Shown: in pieces, positions 25,912 to 35,995 of the stretch
Position numbering within the stretch: the stretch's first letter is position 1
Layout: each line of letters begins with the position of its first letter
Assembly (NCBI GenBank): GCA_047178725.1
Contig: JBCQTD010000007.1
Coordinates: 4,903 to 68,902, forward strand
Origin: Rikenellaceae bacterium
Lineage (GTDB): Bacteria > Bacteroidota > Bacteroidia > Bacteroidales > Rikenellaceae
Direction: 5' to 3'
Length of the DNA: 64,000 nt
Position numbers and translations under genes: made by a program
Notes under the pieces: model-generated
The model's input: the letters and a program-made list of their open reading frames with translations, nothing else
Database searches by the model: none
What the model was told of the DNA's origin: nothing

Positions 25912-27300
25912 TTATTTGTTCTTAACAATCTGCGCCATCATAGTGGCCTCACACGCGAGAGTCTTGCCCACGAAAGCTTTGCCCTCCATGGTTGCAATGC
26001 CACGACGAATAGGCTCAACAAGACGCAACTCAAACTGAAGAGTGTCGCCAGGAACCACCTTGCGCTTAAATTTCACGCCATCAATCTTCATGAAATATGT
26101 AGAGTAGGTCTCGGGATCCTTAATGCCAGCAAGAACCATAATGCCGCTGCACTGCGCCATAGCCTCTACGATCAACACCCCCGGCATTACTGGCTCTTCG
26201 GGGAAGTGACCAACGAAGAATGGCTCATTCATCGTTACATTCTTGATGCCTGCGATCGACTTCTCATCAACATGGAAGATCTTATCCACAAGCAAGAATG
26301 GTGGGCGGTGCGGCAAGAGCTTACGAATGGCATTTACATCAAAGACCGGCGGCTGCTCTACATTATAGCGAAAGCGTGGGCGATCGACCTTCTTATTTAG
26401 CGAGCGCGAGATCTGCTTAATAAATTCGGTGTTGGCATAGTGCCCCGGGCGCGTTGCTACTACCCTACCTACGATTCTCTTTCCTAGAAGCGCGAAGTCT
26501 CCTAGTAGATCCAGCAGCTTATGACGTGCTAGCTCATTGGTATAGCGGAGCTCTAGATTATTTAAATATCCACCTGTAATGGTGATATCCTCCTTATTGA
26601 ATAGCGACTTTAGGTGTGTAAGCTGATCCTCACCTACGGGATTCTCTACCACAACGATAGCGTTATCAAGATCTCCGCCCTTGATTAGATCCATCTTCAT
26701 CAGCGGCTCAAGCTCATGCAGGAATACGAAGGTGCGACATGAGGCGATCTTCTCTGCATAGCTATCCTCTGGCGTGTATGTTGCATACTGATTGCCGATA
26801 ACCTTAGAATTATAGTCAACATGAACCGTTGCAGAAAACTCATCATCAGGATATATAGAGATCTCCACCCCCTTGTCGGCGATGGTATAATTGAGCTTTT
26901 CGTTAACCACAAAACAGGCACGCTCTGCGCTCTGCTCAACGATGCCAGCTTCGAGTATCTTGGCTGCATACTCGCGCGCAGAGCCATCCATAATCGGAGT
27001 TTCGGGGGCATCAATCTCGATGATGGCATTATCCACACCGAGTGTCCAAAGTGCCGATACTATGTGCTCGATAGTCGAAACGCGATAACCATTTTGCTCA
27101 ATGGTTGTACCGCGCGAGGTATCTACTACATACTCGCTGAGGGCTGGAATCTCCGGCGCACCCTCGATATCCACTCTCTTAAATACAATTCCACAATCTA
27201 CCTGGGCAGGGATAACTCTCATGGTTACATTTGCGCCAGTATGCAAACCCTTGCCGCTAAATGAGATAGCCGAGTTAAGTGTCTGTTGATTTGATGACAT
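25912..27300 (-). CDS. lpxC-fabZ: Bifunctional LpxC/FabZ
   Basis: [18 protein letters not shown] (LpxC) fused to [29 protein letters not shown] (FabZ). Confidence 0.97.
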
Positions 27301-28312: not shown

Positions 28313-29956
28313 CTACTTCTTCTTGGCAGCAGCCTTAGCCTTAGCCATCGCTGCGCGACGTGCGGCGAATGCCGCCTGCATGGCATCTAAGGCCTCCTTA
28401 TTGTTTACATAGAAACGTGTTTGACCATAACCCTTGGCGCACTCCGCCTCCAGCTGCGCCTGCAGCTTAGCGGCGATCTCGGGATTTGCATCTATAACAT
28501 TGTTCTGCTCCATAGGATCCTCCTTGGTGTTGAAGAGCTCAAAGCACTTAGCCTTAAAGTAGTAGCGAAGCTTCCACTCCTCATTATTGACAATCATAGG
28601 GCCACCTACCTGCGAGTCGGTAATTACATACTTATCCTTCTTAAGTGGTTTTTGATCCATCAGCTCAGAAAGATATGACGAGCCACTCTTTGCCACCTTT
28701 AGCTTCACACCGAGCATATCGGCCATAGTTGGCAGCAGGTCGTAGTTGGCGATAAGCTGATCCGAAACACGGGGCTCAAGGTGCCCCTTCCAGTAGAATG
28801 CCCATGGCACATTCACTCCACCATCAAGGTTGCTGCGCTTGTAGCCCGAAGTTGAACCATTACCGTTGAAACGGTCGCCACCGGTTACGCTATTAAACTT
28901 ATTTTTGTAGTCGTCAAACGCCTCACCTGTAATAAGGTTGATATCGTTCGATGTGCGTCCCTCGCTATCGTAGTATACGCGGTGGCCATTGTCGGCCGAG
29001 AAGATTACGATGGTATTCTCCAAGATACCAGCGCTCTCTAGCTTATCCAGGATAGCGCCCACATTATCGTCCAACTTCTTAACCATCGAGGCGTACTCCT
29101 TCTCGATCTGCGTTAGCTCATGATTAGCCAAAAGCTCTGGATGAATAGCCGGGATAGATACTGGGCCATGAGGTAGGATAGATGGGTAGTATAGGAAGAA
29201 CTGCTCATCTTTGTTCTCCTCGATATAATTTACGATATGATCCACAAATAGATCCTCGCAGTAGACCTTCTTACCCTCCATATTCCACCTGGCGGCGGTT
29301 GCCTCGGGCGAATCGCCATTTAGGGTTACACCTGCATTGGGGTCTGTATTACCCTCGATTAACTCCATTCTACCATCTGTGAATAGGAACGAGGGATAGA
29401 AACCATGGCAGCGCTGGTGATCGAGATAGCCATAGTAGTGATCCCATCCTCGCGCGGCCATCTGCTTGCGCGTTGAGAGGAATCCCCACTCGAGCTTACC
29501 GACAGCAGCTGTTTTATATCCGGCAGCCTTAAAGACCTTAGCTAGGGTTAGATCATCCTTTGCATAGGTTAGATCGGCATCATTGATCTTCTTCTCGGCG
29601 GCGGCGATAAGCGTTGTGTCGGCCACACAATATGGCCCACCATAGGTCTGCTTATACTTATCGTTTCGACAGTCGTTATAACCCGTCAAGAGCGAGGCGC
29701 GCGCCGGCGCTGAGTAGGCCGAGCTATAGGCGTTATCATACTTAACACCCTGCTCTACGATACGATCTATGTTTGGAGTAGTTAGATGCTTCTGACCATT
29801 GCACGAGAGCATCCCCTTGCCTAGATCGTCGGCATAGATAAATACAACATTCGGGGTTTTGGGCTTTGCAGCAGCTGTTAGGCATGAGCACGCAGCTACA
29901 AGAGTTAGCGCACCAACTGATAGTGTGGTGGCTCGTGGTTTTAGTTTTGAGTCCAT
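28313..29956 (-). CDS. Ser-type S1 sulfatase, exported
   Basis: NVVFIYADDLG, TPNID, SAPARASLLTG (S-x-P-x-R), GK, SADNG motifs. Confidence 0.92.
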   Translation of the reverse strand: MDSKLKPRATTLSVGALTLVAACSCLTAAAKPKTPNVVFIYADDLGKGMLSCNGQKHLTTPNIDRIVEQGVKYDNAYSSAYSAPARASLLTGYNDCRNDKYKQTYGGPYCVADTTLIAAAEKKINDADLTYAKDDLTLAKVFKAAGYKTAAVGKLEWGFLSTRKQMAARGWDHYYGYLDHQRCHGFYPSFLFTDGRMELIEGNTDPNAGVTLNGDSPEATAARWNMEGKKVYCEDLFVDHIVNYIEENKDEQFFLYYPSILPHGPVSIPAIHPELLANHELTQIEKEYASMVKKLDDNVGAILDKLESAGILENTIVIFSADNGHRVYYDSEGRTSNDINLITGEAFDDYKNKFNSVTGGDRFNGNGSTSGYKRSNLDGGVNVPWAFYWKGHLEPRVSDQLIANYDLLPTMADMLGVKLKVAKSGSSYLSELMDQKPLKKDKYVITDSQVGGPMIVNNEEWKLRYYFKAKCFELFNTKEDPMEQNNVIDANPEIAAKLQAQLEAECAKGYGQTRFYVNNKEALDAMQAAFAARRAAMAKAKAAAKKK

Positions 29957-30077: not shown

Positions 30078-31343
30078 TTAGCTACCGAAGTTATCATAGA
30101 GGATGTTCTCAGGTGGAACACCCAAACTATCAAGCATGCTTACCACGGCACCGATCATCATCGGAGGTCCACACATAAGGTATAGACAGCCCTCTGGATC
30201 CTCGTGGTTTTTCAGGTAGTTCTCAAGTAGCACCTGGTGAACAAATCCCGCGGTATAGTTAACGCCAGCGGCATCTGCCTCTGGATCTGGACGGTCAAGA
30301 GCAAGGTTGAACGAGAAGTTTGAGTACTCGTCGATGATCTCCTGGAAGTCATCCATGTATGGAACCTCCTTCAAGGCGCGAGCACCATACCAGAACGAAA
30401 CCGGCATAGTCTTGGTCTTGATGCGCTTGAATAGATCCATGATGTGGCTACGCATTGGAGCCATACCTGCACCACCACCGATGAATACTAGCTCCTGGGT
30501 GTCGCTGATATTATCTGGCAAGAAGAACTCACCGTAAGGGCCCGATACTGTAACCTTATCTCCTGGCTTGCGCGAGTAGATATATGAAGAGCAGATACCT
30601 GGGTTTACATTCTCAAATCCACCTGTTGCACGGTTGAATGGAGGGGTTGCGATACGGATATTAAGCATCACAATATTACCCTCAGATGGGTGGTTGGCCA
30701 TAGAGTAGGCGCGATATGTTGGCTCAGGGTTCTTAGTCGATAGCGACCAAAGATTCATCTTATCCCAATCCTCGCGGAATCTATCCTCAACCTCCATATC
30801 GGTGAACTTGATCTCGTCGTACTTAGGCACGTCGATCTGGATATAACCTCCCGAACGGAAGTTAAGCGACTCTCCCTCTGGAAGCTTAACGACAAACTCC
30901 TTAAGGAAGGTAGAGATGCTGCGGTTAGAGACAACCTCGCACTCCCACTTCTTAACACCAAGAACCTCCTCAGAGACCTGGATCTTCATATCCTCCTTCA
31001 CCTTCACCTGGCAACCTAGGCGCCAGTGATCCTTCTGCATCTTGCGGTTGATAAAGCCAGTCTCAGTTGGGAGGATCTCGCCTCCGCCCTCAAGCACCTG
31101 GCACTTACACATACCACATGAGCCACCACCACCACAAGCCGATGGCAAGAAGATCTGATTCTCAGCAAGGGTGTTGAGAAGCGTAGAACCACTCTCGGTT
31201 GTGATGATCTTCTCGCCACCATTGATGTCGATAGTCACCTCGCCCGAAGATGTTAGTTTTGCCTTTGCAAAGAGAAGTAGACCCACCAAAGCGAGGGTAA
31301 CCACTAGAAAGGCAATAATCGAAACGATAATTGTTAATTGCAT
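30078..31343 (-). CDS. nqrF: Na+-translocating NADH:quinone reductase subunit F
   Basis: [12 protein letters not shown] 2Fe-2S motif, [23 protein letters not shown]. Confidence 0.98.
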
Positions 31344-31363
31344 ATTCTTATTCTCTTTAAAGG

Positions 31364-31972
31364 TTACAATTTAATTCCCGAGAACATCAAAAAGGCCATA
31401 CCCATCAAACCAGTGATGATGAAGGTGATACCTGGGCCCTTAAGTGCTGGTGGAATGTGAGAGTACTGAGTCTTCTCGCGGATAGCGGCCATCATGATGA
31501 TAGCCAGCCACCAACCAATACCAGATCCTAGACCGTAGACTAGAGAGTCTGTGAGTGAAGAGATCTCGCCCGAATCAACCTTCTGCTGCATAAAGAGCGA
31601 ACCACCCATGATGGCGCAGTTTACGGCGATAAGTGGAAGGAAGATACCAAGCTGATTGTAGAGGGTTGGCGAGAACTTCTCGACAATCATCTCAACAAGC
31701 TGCACGAACGAGGCGATAACAGCGATAAAGACGATAAAGGTCAAGAAGCTAAGATCAACACCCTCGACAAGGGCATCGGCCGCAAGGACATACTCATTGA
31801 GCAGATAGTTAAGGGGCACGGTCATAACCATTACGAAGGTAACGGCGGCACCTAGACCCAACGCTGTCTTAACGCTCTTCGATACGGCAATGTATGAACA
31901 CATACCGAAGAAGAAGGCGAAGACCATATTGTCGATAAAGATCGACTTAATAAATAGATTTAAAGTTTCCAT
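31364..31972 (-). CDS. nqrE: Na+-NQR subunit E
   Basis: FFGMCSYIAVSK, GIFLPLIAVNCAI. Confidence 0.97.
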   Translation of the reverse strand: METLNLFIKSIFIDNMVFAFFFGMCSYIAVSKSVKTALGLGAAVTFVMVMTVPLNYLLNEYVLAADALVEGVDLSFLTFIVFIAVIASFVQLVEMIVEKFSPTLYNQLGIFLPLIAVNCAIMGGSLFMQQKVDSGEISSLTDSLVYGLGSGIGWWLAIIMMAAIREKTQYSHIPPALKGPGITFIITGLMGMAFLMFSGIKL

Positions 31973-31985
31973 ATCTTATAGCCTC

Positions 31986-32642
31986 CTATTTTTCCTGTAG
32001 ATCCTTATTACGTGAACGGTGTACCCAGATAATGCAACCGGTGATGATTAGCGCCATCGGTGGGAAGAGCATAAGTCCGTTGTTAGAGTAGAAGCCTCCA
32101 TTTGCAACATACCACGCCTCAGGGATAACCTGATAGCCTAGTAGCTGACCCGAACCGAATAGCTCGCGGAAGAAGGCGATAATCACAAGGATTAGACCAT
32201 AACCTAGACCATTACCGATACCATCCAAAAATGCTGCCCATGGCTTATTGCCGAGGGCGAATGCCTCAACGCGACCCATGATGATACAGTTGGTGATGAT
32301 AAGTCCAACATATACCGATAGCTGTTTTGAGACATCATATACAAATGCCTTAAGAACCTGATCGACCAAGATTACAAGTGCCGCGATAACTACAAGCTGC
32401 ACGATGATACGAATACGCGATGGGATACCATTACGCAGAAGCGACATCACAACATTTGCAAATGCAGTAACCACAATAACCGATAGCGACATTACGATAG
32501 CAGGCTTAAGCTGCACGGTAACCGCCAGGGCGGAACAGATACCCAAGATCTGAACGATAACCGGGTTATTCGCGCTGAATGGGCCTGTGAGGTTCTTGAT
32601 ATTCTTAGCCGAGAACAACGGCTCTTTTTCCGTATTACTCAT
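31986..32642 (-). CDS. nqrD: Na+-NQR subunit D
   Basis: LGICSALAVT, GLIITNCIIMGR. Confidence 0.97.
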   Translation of the reverse strand: MSNTEKEPLFSAKNIKNLTGPFSANNPVIVQILGICSALAVTVQLKPAIVMSLSVIVVTAFANVVMSLLRNGIPSRIRIIVQLVVIAALVILVDQVLKAFVYDVSKQLSVYVGLIITNCIIMGRVEAFALGNKPWAAFLDGIGNGLGYGLILVIIAFFRELFGSGQLLGYQVIPEAWYVANGGFYSNNGLMLFPPMALIITGCIIWVHRSRNKDLQEK

Positions 32643-32646
32643 AGCT

Positions 32647-33462
32647 TTACTTTTTTACTTTATTTGACTTTAAGAATGGAACATACTGCTCAAGCGAGTT
32701 GTAAAGCATTGCTGTCACACCATCGCCAGTCTTTGTTCCTCCTGAAATACCATCCACCTCGTGGTTGAAGTTTGCTCCCGCAGGGTTCGCGCCACCCTTA
32801 ACTAGGGTGATAGAGACGAACTTCGACCCCTCGAAGATGCTCTTGCCTACATACTGAGCCTCGTGCTTAGGGGTGGCGATCTCGGCACCAAGACCTGGGG
32901 TCTCACCTGCGTGATCCATCACAATACCCGAAACGGTCGACATATCGGCCTCAAGAGCGATATAGCCCCAGATTGGCCCCCAAAGACCCTGACCCTCGAC
33001 CGGAAGGACAACCTTGCCATCCTTGGCCTGGAATACAGGAAACGAACCAGCGGCAAAAGTACCCTTAAGATCCGAAAGCATATTGATAACAGCATCACCC
33101 TCAACGCCTGCGATCTTCTTACCCGAAGCATCAACGGCAAAGGCTGTGATATAGCTATCATAATTCTCAGAAGATGCATCAAGAGAGACAAGAATTGAGC
33201 TCTTCTTCTCATTGAGCATATTTGCATTCTGAAGATCCTTAAGCGATAGCGCCACAAAAGAGAGCACTAGAGCCACAAGGACTACCATCACTGTTGAGTA
33301 GGTCACGATATAGATATTACTATTCTTATCGCTGAATGGAGACTTCTTCTTCTCAGGTGCAAACTCTGAAGCGCCAACCTTACATACGGGGCACTCAGCA
33401 GGGGCACAATCTCCAGTGTGGACATATCCACAAACTTTACATGTATATTTATTTGTTGCCAT
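32647..33462 (-). CDS. nqrC: Na+-NQR subunit C with N-terminal rubredoxin-like domain
   Basis: GLWGPIWGY, ETPGLGAEI, VDGISGGT FMN site; extra N-terminal CKVCGY...CPVC before the TM helix. Confidence 0.96.
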   Translation of the reverse strand: MATNKYTCKVCGYVHTGDCAPAECPVCKVGASEFAPEKKKSPFSDKNSNIYIVTYSTVMVVLVALVLSFVALSLKDLQNANMLNEKKSSILVSLDASSENYDSYITAFAVDASGKKIAGVEGDAVINMLSDLKGTFAAGSFPVFQAKDGKVVLPVEGQGLWGPIWGYIALEADMSTVSGIVMDHAGETPGLGAEIATPKHEAQYVGKSIFEGSKFVSITLVKGGANPAGANFNHEVDGISGGTKTGDGVTAMLYNSLEQYVPFLKSNKVKK

Positions 33463-33470
33463 ATCTACTC

Positions 33471-34637
33471 TTATTTAACAGTTTTTGCACGCTTTAGTCG
33501 ACGCGAGATATTTGCCTCAACTACATAGTAGTCAACAAGTGGAGCTAGGGCATTCATAAAGAGGATCGAGAGCATCATTCCCTCAGGGTAGGCTGGATTG
33601 ATAACACGAATCAAGATCGCGATAGCACCAGTCATAAATCCTACGATATACTTACCTACATTTGTCTGAGCAGAGGTCACAGGATCGGTAGCCATAAAGA
33701 CCGCACCGAAGGCAAAACCACCCACTACAAAGTGCTCACATGCGGTAACCATCATGTAATCATTAGCGCCAAAGAGGTTAAAGACGAAAGCCATAAGGCC
33801 ACCACCCACAAATACGCTCAGCATTGTTCTCCATGAGGCGATGCCGGTGAAGATCAAGATAGCGCCACCGATAAGTATGGCCAAGGTAGAGGTCTCACCA
33901 AATGATCCGGGGATAAATCCTAGGAAAGCATCCATCACCGAGTAGCTCATCTCGCCCGAATTGACCAACTGCTCAAGAGCTGTAGCACCCGAGAAGCCAT
34001 CAGCCACCTGAGATGCCTTAACAGCCTCAGACATGCCGTCGACCCAAACCTCAGCACCCGACATAGATGGGGTGTAGGCGAAGAAGGCGAAGGCACGAGC
34101 CAAAAGCGCTGGATTAAAGACATTCATACCAGTTCCACCGAATACCTCCTTACCGAAGATAACAGCGAAGGCGACCGAAAGAGCCACCATCCAGAGCGGA
34201 ATATCAACCGGCATGATCATCGGAATCAAAAGACCAGTAACGAAGAAACCCTCGTTCACCTCATGACCGCGCATCTGGGCAAATAGGATCTCAAGACCTA
34301 GACCAACGCCGTAAGAGACGACAACCATAGGCAGGATCGCAATAAGACCAGAGAGGATATTCTCCATACAGGTTGTCTGGATACCCTGCATAAGGGCGCT
34401 CTGCAAACCTGTGTTATAGAGACCAAAGATAAACGCTGGCATTAGCGAGATAAATACAAAGATCATGGTGCGCTTAGTGTCGATTGCGTCACGGATATGT
34501 GCACCCTTTACAGTCGTTGTATTTGGAACAAAGAGAAGAGTCTCGATCGAATCGAAGAACGACTCGAGAACCTCAAACTTGCCACCCTTAACAAAGTTTG
34601 GCTTAATATTATCTACAAATTTTCTCAATCCCTTCAT
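33471..34637 (-). CDS. nqrB: Na+-NQR subunit B
   Basis: HIRDAIDTKR, KEVFGGTGMN, DGFSGAT FMN site, FMATDPV. Confidence 0.97.
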   Translation of the reverse strand: MKGLRKFVDNIKPNFVKGGKFEVLESFFDSIETLLFVPNTTTVKGAHIRDAIDTKRTMIFVFISLMPAFIFGLYNTGLQSALMQGIQTTCMENILSGLIAILPMVVVSYGVGLGLEILFAQMRGHEVNEGFFVTGLLIPMIMPVDIPLWMVALSVAFAVIFGKEVFGGTGMNVFNPALLARAFAFFAYTPSMSGAEVWVDGMSEAVKASQVADGFSGATALEQLVNSGEMSYSVMDAFLGFIPGSFGETSTLAILIGGAILIFTGIASWRTMLSVFVGGGLMAFVFNLFGANDYMMVTACEHFVVGGFAFGAVFMATDPVTSAQTNVGKYIVGFMTGAIAILIRVINPAYPEGMMLSILFMNALAPLVDYYVVEANISRRLKRAKTVK

Positions 34638-34639
34638 CC

Positions 34640-35995
34640 TTATGCCTCCTTAATCATTATGTTAATACCATCACGGATAAGCTGCTGCATATCGGTTTTT
34701 GAGGGGTCAACGAACTCACAAAGAGCGAAATCCTCCTCCACGACCTCATAGATGCCGAGGTTCTCCATCTTATCAATATCCGCCGCCATAATAGCCTTTA
34801 GAAGGTGCATTGGGTAGATATCCATTGGAAGATACTTCTCGTATAAACCAGTCACAACAAATGCACGACGACCGCCATTAACGTTTGTATCCAAACGATA
34901 CGCCTTCTTAGGGCATAGCCATGAGAAGTAGGCCTTAGAGGTAGAGAATTTGTGGAAACGAGGCGCTGCCCAGCCCATAAACTCATACTTATCGCCCTCT
35001 GGGATAAGTGTAATCATATTCGCATAGAAGCCTACATAGCCATCCTTGCTGCTCTTAGCGCCTGTTAAAACGTTGCCAGAGATATAGCGAACGCTATCGC
35101 CCTCGGCCTGCTCCACAACATTAGCGCCCACAACATCCGACATAGGTGCGCCGGCGATGATCTGAAGATATTTAGGATCCTTCACCTCGCTACCAGCTAC
35201 GGCTACAATCTTTGTCATATCAACCTTGCCGGTAGAGAATAGTCTACCCACGATAGCTAGATCCTGGATGTTAATCGTCCAAGCTGTCTCACCCTTAGAG
35301 ATTGGATCTACGTGGTGGATCTGAACACCAACATTTCCGGCTGGGTGCTTACCCTTGAATGTGGTGCACTCAACGCCGCTTACCGAGCCGAACTGTGCAG
35401 CCGACTTCTCGCTCACGCCGAAGTGAACGCTGCCCGATGTTAGAGCCTTCAAAACCTCTACACCCTTCTCAATATTAGCCATCTCCGAGGCCAAAACAAA
35501 GTTGTAATCTGGCGCTAGAGGCGCTGAATCAAATGTAGATACGAAGATCGCCTTAGGCGACTCATCAGGGTTGGCAATAATGCCATAAGGGCGCTGCTGG
35601 AACATAGGCCATAGACCTGATGCGAGCAGCTGCTCTACAATCTCCTCTCGCGAGGCACTCTTTGGGTCGAGTTTGGCAAACTCCTTGTAGCTCTGCTCAG
35701 CATCTGGCTCAACAACCACAGCAAGAATCTTTCGCTTCTCGCCGCGCTCGATGGCCGCTACTGTTCCGCTCACGGGTGAGGTGAACAACACCCTCTCTTG
35801 ATACTTGCTGTAAAACAGCGGAGTACCTGCTTCAACCTTATCTCCTGCCTTGACAAGCAACTTAGGAGTCACCCCCTCGAAATCGAGTGGCGAAAGAGCA
35901 TACTTAGACGAAAGCGGAAGCTTGGTCAGCTTCGCCTCAGCCTTGCCCTTAAGGTTGATGTCGAGACCCTTACGTAATGAAATGTTTTTCGACAT
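34640..35995 (-). CDS. nqrA: Na+-NQR subunit A
   Basis: KGLDINLKG, HPAGNVG, ISGNVLTG, EEDFALCEFVDPSK. Confidence 0.97.
   Translation of the reverse strand: MSKNISLRKGLDINLKGKAEAKLTKLPLSSKYALSPLDFEGVTPKLLVKAGDKVEAGTPLFYSKYQERVLFTSPVSGTVAAIERGEKRKILAVVVEPDAEQSYKEFAKLDPKSASREEIVEQLLASGLWPMFQQRPYGIIANPDESPKAIFVSTFDSAPLAPDYNFVLASEMANIEKGVEVLKALTSGSVHFGVSEKSAAQFGSVSGVECTTFKGKHPAGNVGVQIHHVDPISKGETAWTINIQDLAIVGRLFSTGKVDMTKIVAVAGSEVKDPKYLQIIAGAPMSDVVGANVVEQAEGDSVRYISGNVLTGAKSSKDGYVGFYANMITLIPEGDKYEFMGWAAPRFHKFSTSKAYFSWLCPKKAYRLDTNVNGGRRAFVVTGLYEKYLPMDIYPMHLLKAIMAADIDKMENLGIYEVVEEDFALCEFVDPSKTDMQQLIRDGINIMIKEA

Follow-up and report, generated by a model that had tools for sequence, protein, structure and literature searches.

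The window analysed here, a stretch of 64,000 nucleotides from a Rikenellaceae bacterium, encodes a complete Na+-NQR in which the NqrC subunit opens with a short rubredoxin-like domain. This N-terminal domain is confirmed, from the sequence, to be in frame and real at the level of the gene, and a single iron, held on the side of the membrane that faces the cytoplasm, is predicted for it. We suggest, with a little less than an even chance of being right, that it acts as an iron electron outlet, passing electrons from NqrF to rubrerythrin, rubredoxin or flavodiiron reductases of O2 and H2O2. The original prediction had offered three functions for such a domain, namely diversion of electrons to oxygen and peroxide defence, an additional electron entry and the sensing of redox state, and the first of these now appears the most likely. 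The features concerned are listed below by their positions in the window.

34640..35995, minus strand: nqrA (TIGR01936, 478.8 bits, cut-off 321)
33471..34637, minus strand: nqrB (TIGR01937, 473.7 bits, cut-off 349.9), with SGAT and Thr219
32647..33462, minus strand: nqrC, 271 amino acids (TIGR01938, 164.4 bits, cut-off 144)
33340..33462, minus strand: short rubredoxin-like domain, NqrC N-terminus, residues 1-41 (PF21349; Cys8, 11, 24 and 27)
33361-33447, minus strand: PF21349 core of NqrC, residues 6-34, by profile match
33325..33357, minus strand: Lys-rich tether between domain and helix, residues 36-46
33229..33318, minus strand: single transmembrane helix of NqrC, residues ~49-78 (hydropathy, and a predicted helix at 49-93)
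31986..32642, minus strand: nqrD (TIGR01939, 310.2 bits, cut-off 244.85), with Cys36 and Cys119
31364..31972, minus strand: nqrE (TIGR01940, 283.1 bits, cut-off 247.55), with Cys25 and Cys119
30078..31343, minus strand: nqrF (TIGR01941, 577.1 bits, cut-off 295), with FAD and NAD domains
28313-29956, minus strand: sulfatase (PF00884), an ordinary gene 3' of nqrF
25912-27300, minus strand: LpxC-FabZ-type fused gene, assigned by motifs, also ordinary and 3' of nqrF (fused LpxC-FabZ is usual in the Bacteroidota)

The nqrC reading frame begins with an ATG 8 nt 3' of the nqrB stop, and the domain is in frame. The second ATG is Met59, within the membrane helix (Kyte-Doolittle windows above 1.6 begin at residues 48-60, and the hydrophobic span covers residues ~48-78), and a check for alternative starts found GTG only at codons 53 and 58 and ATC at codons 50 and 52. 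This agrees with the original prediction of an in-frame domain that starts 8 bp past the nqrB stop, with no Met between that start and the helix. Residues 6-34 match the profile PF21349 (RUBY_RBDX) with 43.4 bits against a cut-off of 26.5 (E 2.3e-11), so that the profile check suggested earlier for residues 1-40 came out above cut-off, while residues 159-257, the periplasmic FMN domain, match PF04205 (FMN_bind); these were the sole Pfam matches to NqrC at E<=0.1. The cysteines are arranged as C8-x2-C11-x12-C24-P-x-C27, and a fifth, C19, occurs in the query NqrC alone among 19 and 37 aligned rows. Classical rubredoxins (PF00301), in contrast, have ~30 residues between the Cys pairs where the NqrC domain has 12, and there was no PF00301 match at E<=0.1. 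Assignment to the short rubredoxin-like Fe(Cys)4 type, as proposed from the motif, is upheld both by the PF21349 match and by the closest solved relatives, which are rubrerythrin-type Fe(Cys)4 domains.

The nqrABCDEF operon (30078-35995, minus strand) is complete, and all six subunits exceed their TIGRFAM cut-offs. Flavinylation threonines are present in NqrB (Thr219, SGAT) and NqrC (Thr243, SGGT), the latter invariant in 84 aligned proteins; the NqrF 2Fe-2S ligands Cys70, 76, 79 and 111 are present and invariant in 37 rows; and Cys36 and Cys119 of NqrD with Cys25 and Cys119 of NqrE are, by homology, the putative ligands of the membrane 2Fe-2S cluster. Na+ pumping coupled to NADH:quinone oxidoreduction is predicted for the window's enzyme. 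That the FMN threonines and the cysteines of NqrD/E and NqrF are all kept argues that the rubredoxin-like domain is an addition and not the repair of a lost cofactor.

The same six-gene order and cofactor residues are found in the Vibrio cholerae Na+-NQR (7XK3, 8A1T) and in the Segatella/Prevotella bryantii model (PMC10739449; papers are cited here for those portions of their text that were available). The V. cholerae and P. bryantii complexes are described there as having six cofactors, and their NqrC as lacking a metal domain at its N-terminus; the window's NqrC adds a Cys4 domain on a tether. The earlier statement that the characterised Vibrio enzyme is without a rubredoxin domain therefore stands, six cofactors only being given in the available descriptions. 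The fusion itself is undescribed in the open full-text literature that was searched, as far as its text was available, although supplementary alignments may show the extension; nor did those sources yield a functional study, in keeping with the remark that none was known. The word "rubredoxin" is absent from the available main text of PMC12174285, PMC10739449, PMC4014512, PMC6560451 and PMC12682751. The architecture is nevertheless on record, because databases label these proteins with both Pfam domains, but apparently it has not been discussed.

One solved structure comes close to the fused protein. NqrC of Parabacteroides distasonis (3LWX) is the best fold match to our NqrC model (E 2.5e-17, 43% identity), but its construct aligns from residue 73, and the structure therefore includes neither the rubredoxin domain nor the helix; the available main text of PMC4348036, which uses 3LWX, leaves rubredoxin unmentioned. 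A fused protein from a metagenome (P0145) differs hardly at all from 3LWX across residues 73-204, and therefore P. distasonis or a very close relative carries the fusion.

Neither chance nor mis-assembly explains the fusion, because 120 of 120 homologs, the best of 7996 that pass E<=1e-3 (query included), contain both PF21349 and PF04205 with the identical C-x2-C-x12-CP-x-C spacing and all four Cys. Whether these cysteines are conserved had been posed as a question with the original prediction, and in this set they are retained throughout. An alignment of 37 domains, drawn from several families, shows no variation in the four Cys, Gly12 or Pro25. In comparisons of Rikenellaceae with other families (110 pairs, every second sequence), identity is 58% in the domain, 59% in NqrF, 67% in NqrD and 40% in the NqrC body. 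The nearest named sequences among the best homologs listed are from Rikenellaceae and Alistipes.

Within the window's genus, a match spanning domain and helix was found in 62 of 154 genomes, including all 15 of at least 3.0 Mb and all 9 consisting of a single contig; the other 92, counted by the match search alone, gave no fused match and may include assemblies lacking nqrC. A sample of the Rikenellaceae (151 genomes, 31 genera) held a domain-containing match in at least 15 genomes, counted over the best 150 matches, and 40 loci from this sample, when inspected, proved to be 14 fused and 26 unfused. In the order Bacteroidales, 6 of 400 genomes, from four other families, were fused, and a scan of 3 of the 64 parts of the collection returned 79 loci, of which 25 were inspected and 22 were fused. 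Named records with the fusion include Alistipes (A. timonensis among them), Tidjanibacter, Prevotella, Paraprevotella, Bacteroidaceae and Paludibacteraceae. A phylum sample of 301 genomes gave fused matches in this order alone, so that the proposed survey places the fusion in several Bacteroidales families and, within that sample, nowhere beyond them. The suggestion that it is common in Rikenellaceae is thus right in part: it is frequent in the window's genus, but it is neither universal in the family nor confined to it.

The history of the domain was followed on a FastTree phylogeny of concatenated NqrA, B, D, E and F, with 85 rows, 43 of them fused, from taxa that were chosen and not random (one locus lacking nqrB was dropped). 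At least 15 changes between the fused and unfused states are needed on this tree; when the labels were shuffled, the mean was 28.5 changes and the lowest count 22. The fusion is patchy, and since it is, the pump plainly works without the domain, which is dispensable across relatives. Among the 42 unfused NqrC proteins, 32 have a plain short N-terminus, 9 a Lys-rich remnant of the tether and one two extra residues; the nine remnants point to loss by deletion. Two fused loci (L028 and L029), nested among unfused sisters, retain an old Met inside the tether and may represent regain of the domain.

As to its source, the original prediction pointed to rubrerythrin. The better candidate is the N-terminal domain of reverse rubrerythrin and not the C-terminal domain of the classical protein: NqrC domains share 41-68% identity with the N-terminal domain of the reverse rubrerythrin encoded by the same genome (18 genomes), which makes it the likely source. 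Over 34 residues, the reverse rubrerythrin of the genome itself was outscored by the best NqrC domain from another group in 17 of the 18, with one tie; this comparison, which bears on one versus several origins, favours kinship among the NqrC domains, although it sets the best of many against one, uses some group labels that fall within one genus and yields means that differ little. (Reverse) rubrerythrins (D. vulgaris 1RYT/1B71; C. difficile 9FJ2) share PF21349 and C-x2-C-x12-CP-x-C with NqrC, the domain being N-terminal in the reverse form. NqrC differs in having no diiron four-helix domain (PF02915), and in carrying its domain tethered to a membrane pump; it also has no counterpart of the Asn/His pair found in classical rubrerythrin.

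In an AlphaFold2 model of NqrC (84 sequences, pLDDT 90), a small beta-knuckle is followed by a loose tether, a single long helix and then the FMN domain, with confidence lowest in the tether (mean pLDDT 65 for block 41-50); the best fold matches to its body are 3LWX and then the Vibrio NqrC chains (E about 1e-15). Modelled alone with AlphaFold2 (pLDDT 84.8), the domain adopts the rubredoxin knuckle fold and fits onto 4TPU, 1B71 and 1RYT with an rmsd of 0.6 A across 34 columns, with E-values of 0.007-0.03 for what is a very short query. TM-scores are ~0.8 to 4TPU, 9FJ2, 1B71 and 1RYT, and a comparison with the C. difficile rubrerythrin 9FJ2 gives Z 6.5 and an rmsd of 2.8 A over 41 residues. The closest solved relatives are rubrerythrins and the ferredoxin-dependent disulfide reductase of M. 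acetivorans (4TPU). In the Foldseek comparison, rubrerythrins, rubredoxins and rubredoxin fusions fill the leading rows, and of the rows shown the first that are not rubredoxins stand at ranks 49-50.

In 40 fused proteins the tether measures 8-21 residues, with 2-5 Lys/Arg in the ten residues preceding the helix. By the positive-inside rule, such a Lys-rich tether fits a cytoplasmic N-terminus. In the V. cholerae enzyme, TMH3 of NqrD and TMH1 of NqrF both closely contact the NqrC helix (PMC9325719), the NqrC body is periplasmic, and NqrF carries a cytoplasmic, flexibly linked ferredoxin-like domain (PMC10643135). Because the NqrC helix touches that of NqrF in the Vibrio structures, the domain likely dangles into the cytoplasm next to NqrF's mobile 2Fe-2S domain. 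The cytoplasmic placement claimed for the NqrC N-terminus accords with the available text of both papers, which would further set it next to NqrF. Prediction of a complex between NqrF residues 31-421 and domain residues 1-41, both entered as alignments and with 2Fe-2S and Fe included, scored 0.00 in two runs in which the controls did not fold, a score that speaks neither for nor against binding.

The potential of the predicted iron site can be bracketed from its relatives. Short rubredoxin sites range from -130 to +280 mV overall, with ~-110 mV for the short domain of the C. difficile FDP_F and +185 to +280 mV for rubrerythrins, whose high potential is ascribed to one Asn and one His close to the Cys pairs (all from PMC6033852). 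When these positions, an Asn inside the first Cys pair and a His two residues past the last Cys, were mapped through the alignment to 1RYT, the pair was present in none of 43 NqrC domains and none of 37 reverse-rubrerythrin domains; the C-terminal rubrerythrin domains had Asn/His in 5/6 and 6/6. An iron site in NqrC would then have a moderate potential, roughly -100 to +50 mV. For NADH we used -320 to -340 mV. The clusters of NqrF and NqrD/E lie near -270 to -300 mV. Any potential in the known range is downhill from NADH, and the site would therefore suit an exit and not an entry.

In the outlet that we propose, electrons would run from NADH through FAD and the NqrF 2Fe-2S cluster to the tethered Fe(Cys)4 site, a path that would be downhill, and onward to rubrerythrin, rubredoxin or flavodiiron protein. 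Without oxygen the tethered site would stay reduced, at no cost; in the presence of O2 or H2O2, its electrons would be drawn off by rubrerythrins, by free rubredoxin or by the flavodiiron protein. Na+ uptake starts at the NqrD/E step (pathway from the available text of PMC12901251); electrons leaving by the outlet would bypass that step and hence pump no Na+. NqrF and the domain together would then have the proposed function of an NADH:rubredoxin oxidoreductase. The working model is the class F flavodiiron protein CD1623 of C. difficile, in which a short Fe(Cys)4 domain at ~-110 mV, fused beside a flavin module that oxidises NADH, hands electrons on to a diiron site that reduces O2 (PMC6033852). 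CD1623 differs in being one soluble chain, whereas here the proposed donor, the FNR-type NqrF, would be another subunit and the acceptor a separate protein. The same module recurs elsewhere: of 11 multi-domain matches scanned, 6 have it fused to NADH:rubredoxin-reductase domains, to a class F flavodiiron protein, or to flavin reductase with rubrerythrin.

Possible acceptors are present. In the window's genome free rubredoxin is encoded twice, once adjoining a flavodiiron gene, alongside a rubrerythrin and a reverse rubrerythrin. All 47 genomes compared have PF21349 matches over the cut-off, at least one of them in a protein other than NqrC, which also led us to reject the idea that the domain compensates for a rubrerythrin without its own. 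A candidate NROR is absent in 33 of 41 Rikenellaceae genomes, which keep rubrerythrins and mostly rubredoxin and flavodiiron protein, and the four PF07992 genes in the window's genome (81% complete) are a thioredoxin reductase, two GltD-like genes and one HdrA-like gene; PF18267 was found in none of 5 genomes. In B. thetaiotaomicron, NROR is one electron source for rubredoxin but not the sole one (PMC5210497), and in P. melaninogenica the nqr genes rise together with rubredoxin and rubrerythrin at 2% O2 (PMC13492135).

Gene content does not follow the fusion. Cytochrome bd occurs in 14/21 fused and 18/26 unfused genomes, flavodiiron protein in 19/21 and 33/40, Rnf in 47/47 and fumarate reductase in 60/61, and none of these tracks it, independent-pairs tests having given no significant link; desulfoferrodoxin was seen in 1 of 5 fused genomes. 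The CoA-disulfide-reductase-like NROR candidate (L196), whose family we take to be that of the B. thetaiotaomicron NROR, is present in 7/21 fused and 11/40 unfused genomes, and on these counts we reject replacement of a soluble NROR by the domain. Replacement of free rubredoxin fares no better: outside Rikenellaceae, PF00301 went unmatched in 6/6 fused and 6/14 unfused genomes but was present in 8 of the 16 fused records that carry names. Genomes with at least two free rubredoxins number 12/43 among the fused and 2/42 among the unfused, an excess that fails an independent-pairs test (median p 0.375) and is confounded with genome size. By the same test there was no co-variation at the eight NqrA/B/D/E/F columns of largest raw difference (of 1643). 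An acidic loop at NqrF residues ~353-358, in the NAD-binding domain, is found in 87% of fused and 38% of unfused lineages (three columns), a difference that is not significant in independent pairs. Two fused genomes (G263 and G322) gave no flavodiiron or free rubredoxin match, and unfused relatives possess the same defence enzymes without the domain. Since the PF21349 family is promiscuous, fusion need not mean a dedicated pathway. Reduced rubredoxin can itself react with O2, and therefore an outlet of this kind would be a liability. Deletion of rubredoxin lowered H2O2 formation by 25% (PMC5210497).

Several other rubredoxin-type genes were encountered during these comparisons. Within the window's genus, L174:3003-3734 (minus strand) encodes an Fe/Mn superoxide dismutase with a C-terminal classical rubredoxin in frame (PF00081, PF02777 and PF00301), L176:2966-3244 (minus strand) encodes the same fusion by motif only, and separate superoxide dismutase and rubredoxin genes are adjacent in L172, L180, L183 and L187; the fusion is odd, because superoxide dismutase needs no electron donor. 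A free rubredoxin lies directly upstream of an FprA/Roo-type flavodiiron gene in G000 (C1:49244-50628, minus strand), L184 and L186, and directly upstream of a bacterioferritin-like gene in L185 (2363-3195, minus strand), ~9 kb from nqrC in an unfused genome. Proteins such as P0121, P0122, P0125, P0154 and P0168, among others, carry 2-5 tandem short rubredoxin domains; in many of them a DUF2231-type membrane domain comes next, P0122 being the case in which this was shown, and in others NROR, cupin or flavin-reductase domains. A stand-alone short rubredoxin ORF of 44 amino acids (L048:940-1074, plus strand) was set aside as it is not in an nqr operon; it lies between sugar-phosphate-isomerase-like and radical-SAM-like genes, labelled by eye from motifs. 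Short rubredoxin-like matches in frames of 41-43 amino acids were also seen in the genus (G979 C1:196337-196453, G925 C14:108139-108252 and G1000 C1:9939-10073), and would be either stand-alone domains or split reverse rubrerythrins. G000 further encodes a 333-amino-acid HdrA-like flavoprotein (C1:179701-180699, minus strand) with a partial match to HdrA models. No RnfG fusion was seen among the matches listed for the best 150 representatives, in searches for which RnfG was not itself the query.

Four other readings of the domain deserve consideration. An unlikely one is that it serves as a redox or oxygen sensor, or as a one-electron buffer, exchanging electrons with NqrF only; it could absorb the second electron of NADH and so limit autoxidation of a flavin semiquinone, or its redox state could govern motion of the NqrC/NqrF helix bundle. 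The domain does sit on a helix that moves in turnover and contacts the NqrF helix (PMC9325719, PMC10643135, PMC10739449), and a function of this sort needs no outside partner, which fits the absence of gene co-occurrence. Force would, however, reach the helix poorly along a tether that is 8-21 residues long and little conserved in sequence, and a centre so far above NADH would stay reduced and, if nothing drained it, could buffer a single time. A similar role has been proposed for N1a, an off-path cluster in complex I, but a non-reducible N1a did not give the expected effect (PMC5210497).

We regard it as quite unlikely that the domain is redox-inert, whether holding Zn or purely structural, and acts as an interaction or stabilising knob or persists as a near-neutral passenger from reverse rubrerythrin. 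Such a reading would be at ease with the 15 or more changes of state among 85 taxa and the 92 of 154 genus genomes without a fused match. Fe and Zn sites are, moreover, indistinguishable by sequence, and MCM zinc ribbons share the fold of the domain model at Z 4.3. It sits poorly with conservation of the domain across families as strong as that of NqrF, and with nearest relatives that are rubrerythrin domains by sequence and rubredoxin-type proteins in the top Foldseek rows.

It is improbable that the domain is an in-line relay from NqrF to the NqrD/E 2Fe-2S cluster, or an extra entry from another donor. The closest structural match, 4TPU, is a ferredoxin-dependent reductase whose rubredoxin domain presumably acts as a relay. 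The gap between NqrF and NqrD/E is too long in static structures (PMC9325719), but movement of NqrF shortens it to 15 A (PMC10643135), and unfused enzymes function, for example that of P. bryantii with its NqrC of 210 amino acids (PMC6560451). Against entry, which the original prediction had also entertained, the measured short-rubredoxin potentials of -130 to +280 mV (PMC6033852) are far above NADH, and return of electrons to the NqrF or NqrD/E clusters would be uphill.

Very improbable, finally, is a role in place of NqrM (DUF539, PF04400), in which the domain would supply iron to build or mend the NqrD/E cluster: rubredoxin sites bind iron tightly and are, to our knowledge, not known as donors, and the domain, though near the cytoplasmic face of NqrD/E, does not complement an absence of NqrM, because PF04400 is unmatched over cut-off in 8 fused genomes but likewise missing in two unfused ones (G031 and G122), in a control panel that had no NqrM-positive genome. 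We do not support a stand-in for NqrM on this evidence; PF04400 has no match on NqrC and none over cut-off in 10 genomes. Like the domain, NqrM presumably contains cysteines. NqrM itself is a small membrane-linked factor encoded by a separate maturation gene and needed for insertion of the membrane 2Fe-2S cluster in V. cholerae (PMC12174285).

Were the domain inert, the fusion would be an annotation detail only. If the outlet is real, the pump has a side exit, and energy conservation at the membrane would be tied directly to oxygen defence. The Na+-NQRs described in the cited papers share six cofactors, and the tethered metal site is predicted to be a seventh. A broader and distinctly more tentative proposal, one that we would not expect to hold in full, is that the Na+-NQR of Alistipes, Parabacteroides and other gut Bacteroidales, with this seventh redox cofactor, doubles as a membrane-bound NADH:rubredoxin oxidoreductase, its tethered iron switching NADH electrons from Na+ pumping to the removal of O2 and H2O2 and, in species that have no soluble NROR, acting as the donor otherwise lacking for their rubredoxin, flavodiiron and rubrerythrin system. 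The fused and unfused sister species provide natural controls for this proposed link between the sodium pump and oxygen defence.
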